From IMG/VR virus record IMGVR_UViG_3300045988_121005: a DNA stretch of 64,000 nucleotides. One strand, written 5' to 3'. Below, one piece after another: positions 28,668-50,394 of this stretch. The stretch is from a virus. The translations under genes and the position numbers were made by a program. The stretch's first letter is position 1, and every line of letters begins with the position of its first letter. The notes below the pieces were generated by a model that worked only from the letters and a program-made list of their open reading frames with translations, had not been told where the DNA came from and ran no database searches.

Positions 28668-29983
28668 ATTATGAATCTTTTAGACATTTCCTCTGCAATA
28701 TCATACACGACCGTATGATCCTCTTCATTGTACGGCTTATTGATATTCAGCACTCCTTTTCTCACTTTGAACTTCTTATCTTTTCTAAGGTGATTCAACA
28801 TACCTTGTTGGAACACGCAGTCCGCCTTTTCAAGTGCTATACTGTCTTCTGTCCATTCTTTCAGCGTATATCCTTTGCTGCTCGTGCTTTTTGGAGAAAA
28901 GTTCATAATACGTGCATCAATCCCATACCATGCTTTAACCATTCTTCTTTCAGCTTCTAATTGAAATGCGTATGATTCCCATATTCCCCCTGATTTAAAG
29001 TCGAGAATAACCACTTCTTCCTTCTCCACTTCTCTTACCTCCTTCTTCGGATCACCTTTTTTAAACTGCCCTGTAGCCCTTTGATACACGGCTCCAAAAT
29101 AACCTTCTTCTTTGTACTTGAATGTCATTTTAACCATCGCATCTATCGGCGTAGCTACCAAATAGTCTTCTAATGACAATATTCTTTCAATCATCATCGG
29201 CTTAACCTTATACTCCGAACAAAACTTAGCAAACTTCATAACTCTGACAATCATATCGTCAAGATCATCTATGCTACCAAAGAATTTGTCAAGATTCTTT
29301 TTCGATATCTTCAGCTTGCCTTCTTGCACTGTCTTAACTATAAAACTTCGATTTAAGACCATATCTCTACCTGTTAGGTACAATCCGTATAAGTAGTGCA
29401 TGATCGTTCCCTTATCAGCTTCATACTGCGCCACCTCTTCCGGATTGCGACCAAGCATCTTCATCTCTTGCTTCCATTCCTGAAGTGCGGTCTTATCATC
29501 TACATACCCATCTTTGATTAAAGTTGTTACCGAAGCATATATCTTGGCCGTTCCATCATCCATCTTCCTTACATAAAAACGATTATCGTCTAATGTCAAT
29601 CTTACGAATTTGGGAGTCTCAATCTTCTTCAACTCATCGCAGATATAAAACGGCTCTAACGTTTCCTGATTTTCTGTAAACGGATTCGAATCTTCTTCTC
29701 CAGGGTTAGGAGCGGCTTCCTCCGCCAGAGCTTCCGGTTCCTCCTCCTTCTGGGCCTGCTCTGGCTCAGGCGCCGGCTCTTTAACTACTGGAACCTGTCC
29801 GCCTCTTTCTGCTATGTCTTTATTCTTTATCAAAGCCATAACTTCCTTTTTTAACTGCTCCGGTGTTTGATCAGGATCTGATACCGACATCACAACATCG
29901 TTCATTCTAAACAACGTATTTCCTTCTCCTTCTACCATAGGCGCAAACCCTAAATCTGTCAATATTTTTATTTTCTCTTTCAT
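28664..29983 (-). CDS. RecB-family PD-(D/E)XK nuclease (exonuclease-like) with an acidic N-terminal linker.
   Basis: ILDFKSG (motif III) and FQLEAERRMV (Q..Y-type motif). Pro/Glu-rich linker in the N-terminal region. Confidence 0.55.
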   Translation of the reverse strand: MKEKIKILTDLGFAPMVEGEGNTLFRMNDVVMSVSDPDQTPEQLKKEVMALIKNKDIAERGGQVPVVKEPAPEPEQAQKEEEPEALAEEAAPNPGEEDSNPFTENQETLEPFYICDELKKIETPKFVRLTLDDNRFYVRKMDDGTAKIYASVTTLIKDGYVDDKTALQEWKQEMKMLGRNPEEVAQYEADKGTIMHYLYGLYLTGRDMVLNRSFIVKTVQEGKLKISKKNLDKFFGSIDDLDDMIVRVMKFAKFCSEYKVKPMMIERILSLEDYLVATPIDAMVKMTFKYKEEGYFGAVYQRATGQFKKGDPKKEVREVEKEEVVILDFKSGGIWESYAFQLEAERRMVKAWYGIDARIMNFSPKSTSSKGYTLKEWTEDSIALEKADCVFQQGMLNHLRKDKKFKVRKGVLNINKPYNEEDHTVVYDIAEEMSKRFII

Positions 29984-43523: not shown

Positions 43524-44333
43524 TTAAATACTTAACTCTTCAATGGTCAAGCCTTTTTCTTTTGCCCATTTTAACATCGAGCATAATTCTGTTTCTGATT
43601 TATATTTCGGATCACGCCACGCCCATCCGAATTTATCCAGGACATGATGATATAATTCGTCGGCCTTTGCCGTGTAAATGTCTTTGAATAAATGCTCCGA
43701 ACCTTCCGGTATAAGCATCTCTGTTGTTGCAAAATCGGAATACGATAAACATCCGTAAGCATATTCTGTTATTTCACTCCACGCTTCTCCGGCTTTAAAT
43801 CCAAATTCTTTTACAAAAGCCAAAGTTAGATACATATTTAATAATATTGTTACATCATATCCCGAATCTGACTTTCTTTCTATTATTTTCTTTTCAAATT
43901 CCTTTAAATCTTCAGGTCCTAAAAAGATGTATCCTGATACCGACCGATAATTAGCCTCCGCATACTTCTTGCATTTATCATCATTAACAATCTTACCAAT
44001 GTTAGATAACATCTTTTGCCTCCATTCATCACAAAACTCTACCTCTACGTTTATCCAATCGGTACCATAATTGTATTCTTTTGGATGTCCGACCGATATT
44101 ACCTTTATGTTATTCACACCATATTCATAAAGGCGTTCGCCCACCTTATTCGCCCATTCCTGTACAAAAGGAATAAACTTATTGCAATAAGAATCAAAAT
44201 CAAAATCTAATTCCTCCTCATATTCCGGCATCTCTTCATAATCTTGTTCAAAGAAATAGCGAGGATCTGCTATTGTTTCATAGAAACTTACGTTAATGAA
44301 ACAAAACTCGTTGGTTGTCGTTTTTAATATCAT
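43524..44333 (-). CDS. Hypothetical protein (269 aa).
   Basis: ORF. Confidence 0.55.
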   Translation of the reverse strand: MILKTTTNEFCFINVSFYETIADPRYFFEQDYEEMPEYEEELDFDFDSYCNKFIPFVQEWANKVGERLYEYGVNNIKVISVGHPKEYNYGTDWINVEVEFCDEWRQKMLSNIGKIVNDDKCKKYAEANYRSVSGYIFLGPEDLKEFEKKIIERKSDSGYDVTILLNMYLTLAFVKEFGFKAGEAWSEITEYAYGCLSYSDFATTEMLIPEGSEHLFKDIYTAKADELYHHVLDKFGWAWRDPKYKSETELCSMLKWAKEKGLTIEELSI

Positions 44334-44584
44334 AGCTTTTTGTATTTACGTACATTTTTCTTGCCATAGAATCTACACATGGCACGAATCTGACTATAAA
44401 ATACTTTTGTCCTCCTGGCCTCAAAGTATTTAAACATTTCTTCATTCTTTGTTTCCCACACGTAATCCGTTTGAGAACTCATGTGATTTTTGTCCTTGCG
44501 TGAATAATGGTAATATGATACCACAACACGTTTCGCACCATTCTTTACAGGTACGATATTCACATCTATATTATTATCTGTCAT
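44330..44584 (-). CDS. Hypothetical protein (84 aa).
   Basis: ORF; 4-nt overlap. Confidence 0.45.
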   Translation of the reverse strand: MTDNNIDVNIVPVKNGAKRVVVSYYHYSRKDKNHMSSQTDYVWETKNEEMFKYFEARRTKVFYSQIRAMCRFYGKKNVRKYKKL

Positions 44585-44703
44585 ATTATTATCGTTTTAT
44601 ATATTATACAAATACAAAGAGCGCATACCTTCACAGGCCGGCGCTCTTTTCAATAAAAATGAAAAAACTAACATTACATAAACATATTGTTTTCTGCTCT
44701 TTA

Positions 44704-44937
44704 TTACAATACTTTTGTCCCACAATTGTTATATCGTCCGTACTCTTTTTTCGTATCATTCAAGATTTCAAACACCATCTTCTTATGATCTTTGTTTGGT
44801 AACTTGTCTTTAACAGCCGATATCACGCTCGCTATAGACGTAAAGCCTGAATCTGTTATTGAACACAACAACAAACCTCTGTCGTCGTCTGTGCTTATCG
44901 CTGACGCCTTTATAATATCATTCCTATATATTCTCAT
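44704..44937 (-). CDS. Hypothetical protein (77 aa).
   Basis: ORF. Confidence 0.4.
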   Translation of the reverse strand: MRIYRNDIIKASAISTDDDRGLLLCSITDSGFTSIASVISAVKDKLPNKDHKKMVFEILNDTKKEYGRYNNCGTKVL

Positions 44938-45115
44938 AATCTTTCGTTTTATTGTCTACAAACTTATCTATATCGTCTCTTATTCTTTTTAGCACTCCGG
45001 CTATAATTTCCGGCATCTCTCCTTCGGTACGGTTCAGAGTTTCTATCACCCCATCAATCCTACCAATTTGACGCCATAAGAAATTGGCGTCTTTCGCATT
45101 AAATTCCCTCATCAT
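44924..45115 (-). CDS. Hypothetical protein (63 aa).
   Basis: ORF. Confidence 0.35.
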   Translation of the reverse strand: MMREFNAKDANFLWRQIGRIDGVIETLNRTEGEMPEIIAGVLKRIRDDIDKFVDNKTKDYENI

Positions 45116-45347
45116 GTCTTATTTTACAGTAAACAACTTGCTTTTTTAAGCACCAGTCTTGCGATTCTGAGAGTGAACACCGTTCGGAGTTGTTAAAAAA
45201 TATACAATCTTTGCAGAACATAAGAGGATCTTCGTCGTCACCAACTACTTTGACATCATACTCTATACCATACAATTTTAATCTAAATACATCTCCTGTT
45301 TTTTTAGAAGACAAATCCATGTTCGGACCGAATGTTATTACTTCCAT
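45099..45347 (-). CDS. Small Cys-rich protein (paralogue family).
   Basis: CKDCIF motif; the N-terminus resembles that of ORF 46530..46790. Confidence 0.5.
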   Translation of the reverse strand: MEVITFGPNMDLSSKKTGDVFRLKLYGIEYDVKVVGDDEDPLMFCKDCIFFNNSERCSLSESQDWCLKKQVVYCKIRHDEGI

Positions 45348-45365
45348 ATAATTATGTTTTATTGT

Positions 45366-45452
45366 TTGTGAGATGCCCAGAATCGAACCAGGACCGGCAC
45401 ATACATACCGGCACGCCGCGCCATCCCTCTATGATACACAAATAGACATGCC
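45366..45452 (-). ncRNA. tRNA-like element; a non-canonical or interrupted tRNA.
   Basis: Minus-strand T-arm CCUGG-UUCGAUU-CUGGG, which pairs only in the minus-strand transcript. It is followed by a CAUCUCA acceptor strand. GC-rich island in AT-rich DNA. No full cloverleaf could be folded by hand. Confidence 0.4.
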
Positions 45453-45520
45453 TATTCTCACGAACCGACATGCCAAAACCCAAAACTTAATTTGATGAAT
45501 AAAATAGATTAACAAAAATA

Positions 45521-45835
45521 CTATTCTAACTCTTTTATAATATCTTTCACAATATTCAGCCTTACCTCCTTCGTTTCTGGACTAATGCAACCAAACCACC
45601 CATAAAACGTTCTTGTTTCCTCTGGTTCTGTGGCCATACTTATCTTCTCCTCCAATTCCGGGAAATATATTCTCACCATTTCGTCTGAACGAAACCCATA
45701 GATATTTTTATGTTTTTTGAAATACATAAACACTACATTTCTTAACGCAACACATATGTATTCCCCATCCTCTTGCCTATCAATCATCTCATATACCTTT
45801 TTCCATATGAATAATCGCTCTTCTTTTGTAAACAT
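45521..45835 (-). CDS. Hypothetical protein (104 aa).
   Basis: ORF. Confidence 0.5.
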   Translation of the reverse strand: MFTKEERLFIWKKVYEMIDRQEDGEYICVALRNVVFMYFKKHKNIYGFRSDEMVRIYFPELEEKISMATEPEETRTFYGWFGCISPETKEVRLNIVKDIIKELE

Positions 45836-46790: not shown

Positions 46791-46861
46791 GTTGTTTATG
46801 TTTTAATTGTTATACATTCCGATTACTACTAATCTATAGAATATAGTTTTCAACTCTCAAC

Positions 46862-47029
46862 CTATTGAATTTTGTAGAATAAACTCACATTATGCCGTTT
46901 TAAAGCACTGTAAGTCTTAATTTTGTTGGAAAACCATACATAATGCTGTTTTAAAACGCTGATCTGTTGAATTTTGTTGGAAGGAAGTTGAATTTTGTTG
47001 GAAGGAAGTTGAATTTTGTTGGAAGGAAG
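46862..47029. repeat. Direct repeats: 3 perfect tandem copies of the 21-bp unit TTGAATTTTGTTGGAAGGAAG, plus degenerate upstream copies. Followed by a C-rich tract (47030-47060).
   Basis: Seen directly in the sequence. Lies in an ORF-free region of about 1 kb. Confidence 0.8.
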
Positions 47030-47721
47030 TGCCCTCCCTCCCCCCCTCTCCAACCCCGGCTAATCCTCCGACTTTCTGCATAGAACCTGCGCTCTCGGCC
47101 TCACTACAGGCATACGGAGAGCGCTACAAGCTTATACTATGGCATGGGATATGGGGTGTTTAGAGATAATATCATTCCATAGAGAGAATAGAGAGCCTTC
47201 AGCCCACGCCCTACCGTCTGCTCCTCCTATCAAGATAGATATTCAAACCTATAATCAAAGCCAAAAACAAAAAGCAAAAGACCATTACAACATTATACTG
47301 ATCCGCTCCGTACTCCAACATAGAACGAATACCAACCGACAGAAAATAAAGATCAGCGACTAATAAAAACCACCACATAAAACAAAAAATTTACAATAAG
47401 TATGTCCGAAAATACGGGTATTATAAAACATAACTAATTGATAATCAGACATACCTTATTTTTAAGAAAAATACAATAAGCCTAATTTTCAATCCATAGA
47501 GACGAAAAAGGCGGCATCCGGCACCATATTTTGGGTCAGAAAACCGCCTACAGTTTCGTTTTAGACCAATTTTAACGACAATATATAGACAAAATACCGG
47601 CATTATATCCAAACAGCCTTATTTTTGTTTCGATTTGAACCAATATACGCATTCCTACCTTGTTTGTCGTCGTGTTCACTCTCAGAATATCTTACCCTTA
47701 AATAGAAAGAGTAGGATACGA

Positions 47722-47969: not shown

Positions 47970-48186
47970 TTTCTTTATGCTTTAATTATGATTAACCCCA
48001 GCGGTTAAGTGCTTCAATATAGAAACCCTCCGCCTCTTTGTACTCACTTTCGCTTAATGTTTCCACCGTATCTATGTAGTTACGCAATGTTATTTTTACG
48101 CAACTGTTTTTAGATTTATTGAACGCTTCAGTTAAAGCGTTAATCATTGCTTTCTTTTCCATGCTATTATATTATTTATAATTTAG

Positions 48187-48250
48187 AGGTTGCTCTGGAA
48201 TCGAACCAGACACGCATTCCTATTCTATACGAATTTTATGCTACAACCAA
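48187..48250 (-). ncRNA. tRNA-like element.
   Basis: Perfect T-arm UCUGG-UUCGAUU-CCAGA followed by an AGCAACC acceptor strand that pairs with an upstream GGUUGUA. At about 62 nt it is too short for a canonical tRNA. Confidence 0.4.
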
Positions 48251-48746
48251 CAGCCCGTAATTAGTACGTAGTTCTTGTGTACAGGCCCGTACTATGTTGT
48301 TATTATATTTTCCGTCTGCTACACAATTTAGCCACAAATAAAGGCGATTGTGTCCTTGCGTTTTGATACGGCACGTCCCTACATGGTAGGCTACATGCTT
48401 GTACCCTGTAATTTAATCTACAGCCTTGTTCTATTTTTCGTGTAAGCAAGTAAGACACGTTTCGATCTGGAGATAAACCTCATACAACGGCATGTTTTCC
48501 AAACTGTAATCACATACCTAACATAAATCACGCCTATTCGGGTGATTCATGCAGTAATACCAGCCCTTTAATTGCCAACGGCAAGGGCAACGGTATATCT
48601 ATCTCCAATATGTAAAATAACTCTCTGCTTGTCAGCTTCAGTCTAAAGCATACGCGGGACGTGCACCCACTGACAATGGCGTACAGGCGCGTTTTAAGGC
48701 ACGCGTAAAACCTTTGGAGAGCTTAACGGCGCTCTCCATGCCTTTG

Positions 48747-49349
48747 TTACTGCTGGTTGCTTTCATGTGCGAGGTATTCACTTACACACTTTGCCACAGT
48801 GCGAATAGAATAAGATTTGATCTTAACAGCCACATAAGTAGATTTGTACTCGTCGGTTTCTTTTATCAACCATTTAGTACTTTTTTTGGTCTCCAATGAT
48901 TCGGCAGTAGTAAAACCAAATGCTTTATATTCGCTACCGTAAACCACATTCTCGGCGCACCAATCAGCCGTTTTGGCTTCAATTCCTTTTTCTTTGTCTG
49001 CATTGGTATCTTTATACACTTTAGAGTATAAAGTAAACTTAACAAAAGTATTATCCACTTTAGGTAACATCTGACTACATACTGCCACCAGATTTTTTTT
49101 ATCTTTGGCGATGGCTGCTACCTTTACGGCGTATTCTGCCGGTATTTCCAAAGCCTTGCAAATAGCCTTAAGATCAGCTCCATTAGCAAATAGAGCGTTG
49201 TACAGTTTAACAGCACCTACCAAATTTGCAGCATTTTCTTTAATAACAGCATTCTGTAGTTTGTTTACATTTTTTTTCGTAATCATATCCAATATATTTT
49301 TAATTGTTAAACAAATGATATTCAATTTAATGACCCACAACGCAGGCAA
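48747..49349 (-). CDS. Hypothetical Lys/Ala-rich protein; the start is probably the internal MITKKN.
   Basis: ORF with a hairpin (GGAGAGC...GCTCTCC) just downstream of its stop. Confidence 0.5.
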   Translation of the reverse strand: MPALWVIKLNIICLTIKNILDMITKKNVNKLQNAVIKENAANLVGAVKLYNALFANGADLKAICKALEIPAEYAVKVAAIAKDKKNLVAVCSQMLPKVDNTFVKFTLYSKVYKDTNADKEKGIEAKTADWCAENVVYGSEYKAFGFTTAESLETKKSTKWLIKETDEYKSTYVAVKIKSYSIRTVAKCVSEYLAHESNQQ

Positions 49350-49683
49350 TTACAGATACATATATAATTCACCCAACGGGTACACTATATAGATTCACTA
49401 TGTTAACTCGTAATCTCTCTCGATCACGACGCAAATATACGACATTTGTCAATACTACAAATATATATGCTATCTTTTTTTTGTTAATTTGTATTAATTT
49501 CGATTCTATTATCTGATTATCAACAAGTTGTAGAACACACGAGAGCAGTATTATACGCGTACATTAATATGTAGGATATATGCTTATTTAAGTGGCTTAT
49601 AATCAATAGGTTATAATAATACATTGATTATCAATAATTTAAATAAGTGATTGATAATCAGACAGTTTGTAGGTTTAAGGTAA

Positions 49684-49735
49684 AAACGCGTTTACGGTTT
49701 TCAAGCGAAGGGGGTGTGGGGGAGAAAACGCGTTT
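49684..49735. promoter_or_regulatory. Two copies of the 10-bp perfect palindrome AAACGCGTTT, 42 bp apart.
   Basis: Copies at 49684-49693 and 49726-49735. Candidate dimeric regulator-binding sites. Confidence 0.4.
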
Positions 49736-49773
49736 CGGGGGCGGGAGGTTCGTGATAGGTACCCCCTCTCTCC

Positions 49774-49956
49774 CATCACATAAACATCTTTCATATCCCT
49801 CATCACATAAACATCTTTCATATCCCTCATCACATAAACATCTTTCATATCCCTCATCACATAAACATCTTTCTCATATCCCTCATCACATAAACATCTT
49901 TCTCATATCTCTCCCATCACATAAACATCTTTCATATCCCTCATCACATAAAAGTA
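49774..49956. repeat. Tandem direct repeat of about 27 bp (CATCACATAAACATCTTTCATATCCCT), roughly 6.5 copies. Iteron-like.
   Basis: Seen directly. Units are near-identical; some carry a 1-nt insertion. Confidence 0.85.
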
Positions 49957-50001
49957 TGGGGAACCTATCCAAAGTTCCCCATACTTATTTTACGACGGTA
50001 A

Positions 50002-50394
50002 TTATTTACTTTCCCATATTAGTTTATCTTCGGCTATTCCGATCTTTACTTCCTCGCACTTTCTTCCTATCCATCCATTGAGATACGAGAATGGTTCTGA
50101 GTTTTTTACTTCTTCTCCTAAGAAATTAAAAGCTTCAGTAGAAACATGGGATGCTTCATGGCGAACTGTTTCAAAATCAATTATTTTCTTATTAATAAAC
50201 CATATCAAAAATCCCGTATTAGGATTTAATTTACACCCTCCGTATGGAACGGATACAGTTACAGCCTTGCTATTATCTACGTAACTAAAATCGTTATTGA
50301 AACATTCTACCATGCCAGATACGTCTTTTCCTACGTATATCCACAGATTAAAAGGATAGACTTCCGGATAGAACTGATATAATTCACGCTTCAT
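50002..50394 (-). CDS. Small protein with an HExxH motif; putative zinc metallopeptidase-like.
   Basis: VRHEASHV. Last gene of a four-gene coupled operon. Confidence 0.4.
   Translation of the reverse strand: MKRELYQFYPEVYPFNLWIYVGKDVSGMVECFNNDFSYVDNSKAVTVSVPYGGCKLNPNTGFLIWFINKKIIDFETVRHEASHVSTEAFNFLGEEVKNSEPFSYLNGWIGRKCEEVKIGIAEDKLIWESK

Follow-up and report, generated by a model that had tools for sequence, protein, structure and literature searches.

Among the iteron-type replicons, phage lambda carries its origin inside gene O, P1 shows the arrangement incC-repA-incA, and pSC101 combines iterons with inverted-repeat operators. The locus compared with them here is an intergenic gap of 715 bp (positions 49287–50001) in 64,000 nucleotides of viral DNA (IMG/VR record IMGVR_UViG_3300045988_121005; this whole stretch is referred to below as the window). 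The gap separates two minus-strand genes, which encode proteins of 130 amino acids (aa; 50002–50394) and 179 aa, and it contains a 27-bp tandem array next to a G/C-rich block with two copies of the palindrome AAACGCGTTT. A preliminary description of the sequence took the direct repeats for iterons and the locus for a candidate replication origin or regulatory hub.

By its sequence, the genome in the window is that of an epsilon crAss-like phage. Its only relative in GenBank is the human gut phage crAssE-Sib (OR575929, 151 kb), which is 84.5% identical across the locus and is an epsilon crAss-like phage of the proposed genus Epsilonunovirus (PMC11054128). Phages of the epsilon group make up an estimated 13–18% of crAss-virome reads in the human gut; they have no DNA polymerase and lack the crAss transcription-gene block (PMC7886860), so that host polymerases are needed and host-type -7 promoter boxes become relevant. 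In the same group an integrase was not detected, a repressor and anti-repressors are encoded, and a non-integrating temperate lifestyle was deemed possible by the authors (PMC11054128). The element described here is mentioned neither in these two papers on epsilon crAss-like phages (PMC11054128, PMC7886860) nor in the wider literature searched.

The intergenic region is interpreted here, with a probability of roughly one half, as a conserved cis-acting control module of about 330 bp in epsilon crAss-like phages, in which the tandem array would be an accessory minisatellite. Of the functions proposed earlier, a regulatory hub with palindromic operators is the best-supported one for this locus: the palindromes keep a spacing of 41–43 bp, the adjoining spacer holds operator-like sites, and two perfect -7 boxes are present. 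The comparison draws on about 150 related contigs. Scanning IMG/VR with a pattern of the block and with the 130-aa protein gave about 120 loci, to which a looser palindrome pattern added more, and the sister lineages were reached through distant homologues of the 179-aa protein together with a diverged block pattern. The exact pattern of the L186 type gave 0 matches in viral contigs.

The block is the deeply conserved part of the region. Its 42% AT compares with 62% for the window, and both the twin palindromes 42 bp apart and the G-rich tract of the preliminary description are found in it (Table 1); AAACGCGTTT occurs in the window in exactly these two copies, the distance being counted from start to start. 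Within the genus, conservation is higher in the segment 49460–49780 than in the coding sequence on either side, and the 38 nt past the search anchor, which were unused in the selection of sequences, vary in two sequences only. Outside the genus, the block is still about 80–85% identical in L186, L189, L191, L192 and L195–L198, lineages in which the homologues of the 179-aa protein are 26–43% identical. The spacing of the CGCG-centred palindrome pair is 42, 41, 42 and 43 bp in four lineages. The order of the elements is GG(T/A)ACC, CCTAYCAYGAACCYCCCGCC, palindrome 1, about 28 nt of G/C-rich sequence and palindrome 2, followed 99–131 bp past palindrome 2 by a third site, ACGCG(T/A), about 100 bp later by a TAnnTTTG box, and then by the gene. 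An extra TAnnTTTG box is found in L189 about 40 bp past the third site.

The hexamer ACGCGT occurs four times in the window, which as a total is what chance would give (4.6 expected), while all four copies fall within 1.03 kb, a clustering that is not (roughly 2e-5). The 151-kb genome OR575929.1 contains three copies, all within the module, where about 11 are expected by scaling of the shuffle estimate for the window. The hexamer appears to be avoided elsewhere in that genome, either through restriction avoidance or through selection for a unique signal. The arms of the inverted repeats show no compensatory changes among 62 relatives, and such conservation favours protein-binding DNA sites. 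An unrelated phage, L144, has the same pair of AAACGCGTTT palindromes as an apparent operator, with XRE genes diverging on either side. A G-quadruplex of the form G5-N3-G5-N14-G5-N-G3, with linkers that vary and runs that are kept in the genus, was also considered and was rejected because L189 and L191 replace one run.

Between the block and the 179-aa gene lies the AT-rich spacer. The AT-richness that had been ascribed to the whole region holds for 49458–49682 (75% AT against 62% for the window), and does not hold for the G/C block or in any marked way for the array (66.5% AT). The spacer length of about 200 bp is conserved across lineages. The 15-mer ATTGATAATCAGACA, common to both non-coding regions in which it is found, looks like a shared protein-binding site. 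A sigma-70-like match coincides with the position of the minus-strand -7 boxes, and equivalent boxes lie about 100 bp past the third CGCG site in L186, L189, L191, L192 and L195–L198. Given their expected place and strand, these boxes (49432..49465 in the window) are best read as the promoter of the 179-aa gene. At the other end of the module, the predicted hairpin at the array's distal boundary serves the upstream 130-aa gene as its intrinsic terminator; relatives have three different hairpins at this place, each after an A-run of the plus strand, which is a T-run of the minus strand.

In the sense of the genes, the module opens with the intrinsic terminator that closes the upstream operon, and the array follows. 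Next come the G/C block of about 90 bp, with CGCG-centred palindromes four helical turns apart, and then some 200 bp of AT-rich DNA with the third ACGCGT and the operator-like TGATnATCA and 15-mer sites. The TAnnTTTG boxes and the 179-aa gene complete it, the latter being the first gene of the following operon, whose small genes are probably early. One or several dimeric DNA-binding proteins, held on the same-face palindromes and on the operator-like sites, would control the promoter, and the resulting nucleoprotein complex might at the same time be used to start replication. The array may owe its growth, in one genus, to a short motif beside the block, C-free in the gene sense, that multiplied through slippage or unequal recombination in what would be poorly transcribed DNA between terminator and promoter. 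At most it would modulate the module, for example by offering extra low-specificity binding sites or a strand-asymmetric spacer.

Table 1. Positions of the features of the intergenic region and its surroundings in the window
Feature	Position	Strand	Basis or remark
Tandem array, 6.4 units of 27-31 bp	49774..49952		TRF (Tandem Repeats Finder)
G/C block, deeply conserved	49683..49773		Near-invariant in ~130 genus contigs
Palindrome 1, AAACGCGTTT	49684-49693		Sequence
G runs, GGGGGTGTGGGGG	49710-49722		Between the two palindromes
Palindrome 2, AAACGCGTTT	49726-49735		Sequence
GGGGGCGGGAGG	49737-49748		Part of the G/C block
GGTACC	49758-49763		Part of the G/C block
CCCCCTCTCTCC	49762-49773		Part of the G/C block
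AT-rich spacer with operator-like palindromes	49490..49682		73% AT
TGATnATCA	49514, 49625, 49652		Three operator-like palindromes
15-mer ATTGATAATCAGACA	49650-49664; inverted 2-mismatch copy 49510-49524; also 47437-47451		0.46 expected
Third ACGCGT, within TACGCGTACATTAATATGTA	49555-49560		Sequence
Two Bacteroidetes-type -7 boxes, TATATTTG	49465->49458, 49439->49432	-	Perfect matches
Predicted terminator hairpin, 13-bp arms, 9-nt loop, then TTTTAT on the minus strand	49952..49986	-	Arms 100% complementary
Candidate plus-strand -7 box, TAGGTTTA here, TAnnTTTG in most relatives	49670..49677	+	Points into block and array
179-aa conserved gene	48747..49286	-	First gene behind the module, always accompanies the block
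Second, mirrored module (Region A)	46850..47075		Array and conserved block, ~2.7 kb left

Several observations weigh against a control module of this kind. No cognate binding protein was found; the repressor, HU-like and zinc-finger proteins annotated in the relative are candidates. With the palindromes 220–290 bp upstream of the -7 boxes, simple repression would have to act over a long distance. An ordinary operator region would not usually contain non-coding sequence conserved well past the neighbouring proteins, and such a block would fit an origin, a packaging signal or an RNA too. Several G.U-compatible changes and three changes on both sides of a pair fit an RNA fold of the block. Moreover, the conserved core of the array units and the near-absence of G despite many substitutions hint at some constraint on the array.

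A non-coding RNA or a cis-acting RNA element is a doubtful alternative that can take two forms. In the first, which concerns this genus, a transcript of the plus strand would start from the candidate plus-strand box and would consist of a structured G-rich 5' domain, the G-free repeat and a 3' hairpin, the unstructured G-free repeat acting as a protein or RNA sponge or as a Rho-loading site. The box is perfect in 31 of 52 distinct genus variants, with its 'nn' positions variable, but is defective in the window and in about 40% of the variants and absent in the diverged lineages. The terminator hairpin is followed by ATTTT on the plus strand as well, although this is a weak T-tail, and the G-free composition of the repeat is retained despite divergence. 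A precedent would be the crAss-like phage phi14:2, in which long intergenic regions give rise to abundant early long non-coding RNAs (lncRNAs; 10.1101/2020.03.07.982082).

In the second form, read-through of the block on the gene strand would give two helices, with the palindromes pairing, that serve as a second terminator or a processing element. RNAalifold, applied to 17 diverse blocks, yields a 13-bp helix between the palindromes and a helix between the G-run and the C-run, with 96% of cells paired, and the pairs that change on both sides are those at 15/36 (AU>GU>GC), 49/99 and 58/89. The G.U pairs favour the gene strand, which contradicts the first form. In L195 and L198 the block lies about 30 nt past the upstream stop codon, with no terminator. 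Yet a single block sequence folds no better than shuffles (z -0.08, -1.28), the covariation term is -0.54 kcal/mol with few independent events, and the numbers of covarying pairs and of pair types do not exceed those of shuffles (170/500), though the score is above all of them. Rfam scans at gathering and E-value thresholds returned only tRNAs elsewhere and a sub-threshold, terminator-like ctRNA match. The palindromes are self-complementary, and conservation for protein binding, as proposed for the control module, explains the same pattern.

TRF, run on the 64-kb window, reports the tandem array with a period of 27, 6.4 copies, 93% matches and a score of 297, by far the strongest tandem repeat of the window, in agreement with the 27-bp repeat of about 6.5 copies noted before. 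Units 4 and 5 measure 29 and 31 bp. In each unit a conserved core, CATCACATAAACnTnTTT, is joined to a T/C-rich tail that varies, and the plus strand of the array in the window contains no G. Allowing at most one mismatch, a 12-nt form of the core, CATCACATAAAC, has eight matches where 0.42 are expected, all but one of them inside the array. The units abut without spacers and their variable tails are low-complexity versions of each other, which upholds the earlier statement that the array does not belong to the clustered regularly interspaced short palindromic repeats (CRISPR). The array core (ATCA-C-ATAA) has some resemblance to the operator half-site ATCAATAA; this likeness was too weak and was not used. 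A copy of the core variant CATTACATAAAC with one mismatch is found at 44672–44683, near a tandem repeat of 15 bp x 2.7 (44567–44607), in another stretch poor in open reading frames (ORFs; 44333–45521).

Within the genus the array ranges from 0 to 14 copies (mode 3) and the tract from 75 to 470 nt, as counted in 66–86 complete relatives. Unit lengths are spread over 27 bp (44 units), 29 bp (37), 30 bp (57), 31 bp (37), 32 bp (19) and 33 bp (23), and the cores are spaced by 27–34 bp without helical phasing. There are 84–94 unit types, often arranged as higher-order repeats, and diverged units are found at the array edges. G accounts for 135 of 14,421 plus-strand bases of the arrays (0.9%). The majority base is present at 94% in the core (12–18 nt) against 58% in the tail, in units that were located by their core match and share descent. 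Sixteen of the 49 protein-anchored contigs (33%) stop inside array units, which means that the array breaks short-read assemblies; the idea that these contig ends are physical ends of the genome was rejected, as the ends fall within repeat units.

The closest GenBank relative, crAssE-Sib, has only 3.6 degenerate copies. Sister lineages replace the array with a few copies of a short GTTTGTTTAAGGA-like motif (two in L189, L192 and L196, one in L197, none in L195 and L198), with block, spacer, promoter and gene all kept, or with unrelated short repeats at the same place, which are (GGGGA)x3.8 in L186 and TTTTATGAGGGAC x8 in L183. Since the array is shrunken or absent where block, spacer, promoter and gene persist, it is a variable-number tandem repeat (VNTR) and not an essential iteron set. 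It behaves, over the sequences compared, as a hypervariable, dispensable and genus-specific minisatellite at the edge of the module. The reading of the array as iterons fails on the 0–14 copies, the lack of phasing and the reduction or loss in sister lineages; absence or variability of the repeat in relatives is what the preliminary description itself had named as the mark of a simple VNTR.

The region had also been described as ORF-free; mechanical ORFs of 144 aa on the plus strand and 61 aa on the minus strand do cross it. A repetitive peptide encoded by the array, through either the minus ORF (49675–49860) or the plus ORF (49647–50081), has a negligible chance of being the explanation. The ORFs do exist, and the shorter one is annotated as a coding sequence of 55 aa in the crAssE-Sib record (L001 1938–2105). 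However, units of 28, 29, 31 and 32 bp are common and differences in the G-runs shift the frame; with unit lengths that are often not multiples of three and G-runs of varying length, the crossing ORFs cannot be conserved. The number of copies varies, the nucleotide-level invariance of the block extends to what would be wobble positions, and no PHROG matches the plus ORF.

The locus lies within a minus-strand gene block of about 57 kb. Upstream of it are genes for a helicase, a clamp, SSB, tRNAs, PNK and NrnA, and downstream a run of small genes is followed by a primase and a DnaB-like helicase, which places the module between two replication-gene clusters. This position supports an origin of replication that borrows the host replisome, a tentative and rather unlikely alternative in which the twin palindromes of the block would be initiator sites, the AT-rich 200 bp or so the unwinding region, and the promoter a means of transcriptional activation. 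The strand-asymmetric repeats would be the counterpart of the lambdoid asymmetric stretch beside the iterons, or extra initiator sites. A phage with no DNA polymerase and a minimal replication set would need a specific recruitment site. The sequence motifs of the module are unique in the genome, the AT-rich spacer adjoins the block, and the conservation of the block exceeds that of the proteins. A second array and block 2.7 kb away recalls the iterons–rep–iterons layout of P1 and F. The non-integrating temperate lifestyle considered possible for these phages (PMC11054128) would also fit an origin.

Further support for an origin comes from three unrelated, GC-rich phages, L166, L179 and L180, in which a strand-asymmetric short tandem repeat comes after two to four GAAACGCGTTTC sites. 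The gene that contains these sites is at the initiator position (DUF1376, beside Toprim-DnaB or a DnaC-like loader), an arrangement like that of lambda O. In L166 (3900–4010), L179 (4800–4900) and L180 (5170–5310) they encode a repeated 'ETRF' and are followed by (GGACAG)n or (CAGAGAA)n; by analogy with lambda O, these are probably origins inside the initiator gene. The analogy is partly circular, the three sequences having been found by searching for the same palindrome. With the palindrome present in an initiator-like gene in these sequences and in the apparent operator of L144, the motif alone does not discriminate between the two functions.

Several results argue against an origin. No initiator could be recognised: the 179-aa protein belongs to no Pfam family and has neither a Rep-like fold nor Rep_3 or winged-helix similarity, and the minus-strand gene at 28664–29983, a 'DNA replication factor' according to the annotation of the relative, matches exonuclease PHROGs (phrog_298, E = 1e-12) and no initiator family. 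The segment 46500–50100 contains three scattered 1-mismatch matches to the DnaA box and no cluster of such boxes. Coding-sense GC and AT skew have no origin/terminus pattern; the profile of the window is uninformative, and the strand-corrected 151-kb genome of crAssE-Sib gives no origin or terminus signal, gene orientation being dominant. An iteron origin is expected to have at least three repeats of 17–22 bp with conserved number and phasing, which the variable, unphased and dispensable array does not provide, and an adjacent initiator gene of the Rep_3, RepA, pi or lambda O type, of which none was recognised. An AT-rich region, expected next to the repeats for unwinding, is present (49458–49682). 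The block may act as an origin, while the evidence does not support such a role for the array.

In the crAssE-Sib record the coding-sense GC skew is 0.27–0.33 in the downstream operon (136–150 kb) against 0.14–0.21 in the upstream operon (1–17 kb), and the AT skew likewise shifts between the operons flanking the module in OR575929.1; the shift would fit a switch to another transcription unit, or to another expression level, at the module. An attP site or prophage junction was sought by a scan of genome contigs, which returned only a 3.9-kb phage piece ending at the array, binned in a Veillonella metagenome-assembled genome (L125, NZ_DXLG01000138.1). It is uninformative on integration and probably a binning artefact.

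A second module, Region A, mirrors the first. Its array (21 bp x 3.1 at 46966–47030) is C-free on the plus strand, and the conserved block that abuts it is the polypyrimidine CCCTCCCTCCCCCCCTCTCC at 47031–47075. In 69 relatives the units measure 21–45 bp and number from one to more than eight, and the block is conserved. In the 151-kb genome of crAssE-Sib, CCCCCTCTC occurs only at the blocks of the two modules. Some units of Region A hold a perfect plus-strand -7 box, TAATTTTG. Many Logan/ENA contigs with the 179-aa gene have a length of about 2.75–2.84 kb, equal to the separation of the two arrays.

Between the two modules lie the 179-aa gene and two small ORFs, together with a degenerate tRNA-like stretch, a conserved ORF-poor segment and the start that PhageTerm assigned to the crAssE-Sib record (P = 1.5e-22). 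The latter corresponds to window position ~47710, which is 0.65 kb from the block of Region A and 2.0 kb from that of the first module, about 2 kb left of its array. A packaging signal (pac or terminase recognition), with the two array-and-block modules flanking the terminase start site, is improbable. It would gain from the location of this start between the modules, from the genome-unique motifs and from the mirrored arrangement of the modules, and in T7 series of short repeats flank the terminal repeat. Nevertheless, the predicted start is 2 kb from the array and block studied here, the terminase genes are about 20 kb off, and the contigs ending in the array are explained by assembly breaks within units.

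An ORF-poor gap of about 600 nt lies behind the 179-aa gene (48170–48746) and behind its homologue in all the other lineages inspected, L183, L185, L186, L189 and L191. Its portion 48410–48680 is 94–96% conserved across the genus, above the level of coding sequence, and is a candidate for a long non-coding RNA or a leader. The tRNA-like stretch, on the minus strand at ~48175–48235 (GGUUGUAGCAU...GUCUGGUUCGAUUCCAGAGCAACC), shows an acceptor stem together with a single long arm and a T-arm of canonical form, and was called by neither ARAGORN nor Rfam. It may be a degenerate tRNA or the tRNA-like end of a longer RNA.

With the second module included, a more far-reaching proposal can be made, which is speculative and unlikely. 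The block and the AT-rich spacer could be the origin, or a combined centre of origin, early switch and packaging start, of the polymerase-less epsilon phages, for which a plasmid-like carrier state is possible. The two mirrored minisatellites would then be accessories, as tunable landing pads for an initiator or host factors, or as R-loop or unwinding elements. In a variant of this proposal the block would be a cis-acting RNA of the gene strand.

No origin, switch or packaging signal is known for the epsilon crAss-like phages, which are uncultured. A non-coding module of about 330 bp that outlasts protein divergence and has genome-unique motifs is a testable handle on their control or replication. 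The array alone is an ordinary kind of thing, and the adjoining block is the more interesting element. The two minisatellites explain why a third of the assemblies of the group break at the same place, and they could be high-resolution strain markers (VNTR typing) for tracking phages between people.

Compared with known systems, the locus shares with the iteron origins the direct repeats in one orientation beside palindromes, an AT-rich stretch and the promoter of the adjacent gene, as well as a second repeat cluster a few kb away, a strand-asymmetric stretch next to binding sites and genome-unique motifs. It differs from them in having no recognised initiator of the Rep or O type and no DnaA boxes, and its 0–14 repeats of 27–34 bp are dispensable and unphased. 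The conserved part here is the palindrome block and not the direct repeats. Transcription-primed origins, in which an R-loop is formed, include ColE1 RNA II, T4 oriF and oriG, and the mitochondrial conserved sequence block II (CSB II). The likeness to these is the promoter-like box of the genus, which points into G-runs (G5-N3-G5...G5-N-G3) resembling CSB II; unlike there, neither the G-runs nor the plus-strand box are conserved in the sister lineages, of which L189 and L191 replace one run.

The operator and promoter regions of phages, of which a lambda-type immunity region is an example, have palindromes at fixed spacing on one face of the DNA beside a host-type operon promoter, as is found here, and the epsilon group encodes a repressor and anti-repressors (PMC11054128). 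However, the palindromes of the present module precede the -7 boxes by more than 200 bp, and the block is more conserved across genera than any neighbouring protein. Furthermore, the repressor gene is absent from the second genus (PMC11054128), whereas the block persists in diverged lineages. The early lncRNAs of phi14:2 (10.1101/2020.03.07.982082) resemble the locus in coming from a long intergenic region in the early or replication part of a crAss-like genome. The likeness is one of position, and in the present case the fold statistics are weak and the transcript is putative.

The array itself is most similar to VNTR or minisatellite loci. As in these, it is an intergenic head-to-tail array in which the copy number and the mix of units differ between close relatives, and it shows higher-order repeats, diverged edge units and breakage of assemblies. 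Unlike them, it keeps a core of 12–18 nt and the absence of G across more than 90 unit types, and it always abuts the same invariant block, with a similar second array 2.7 kb away.

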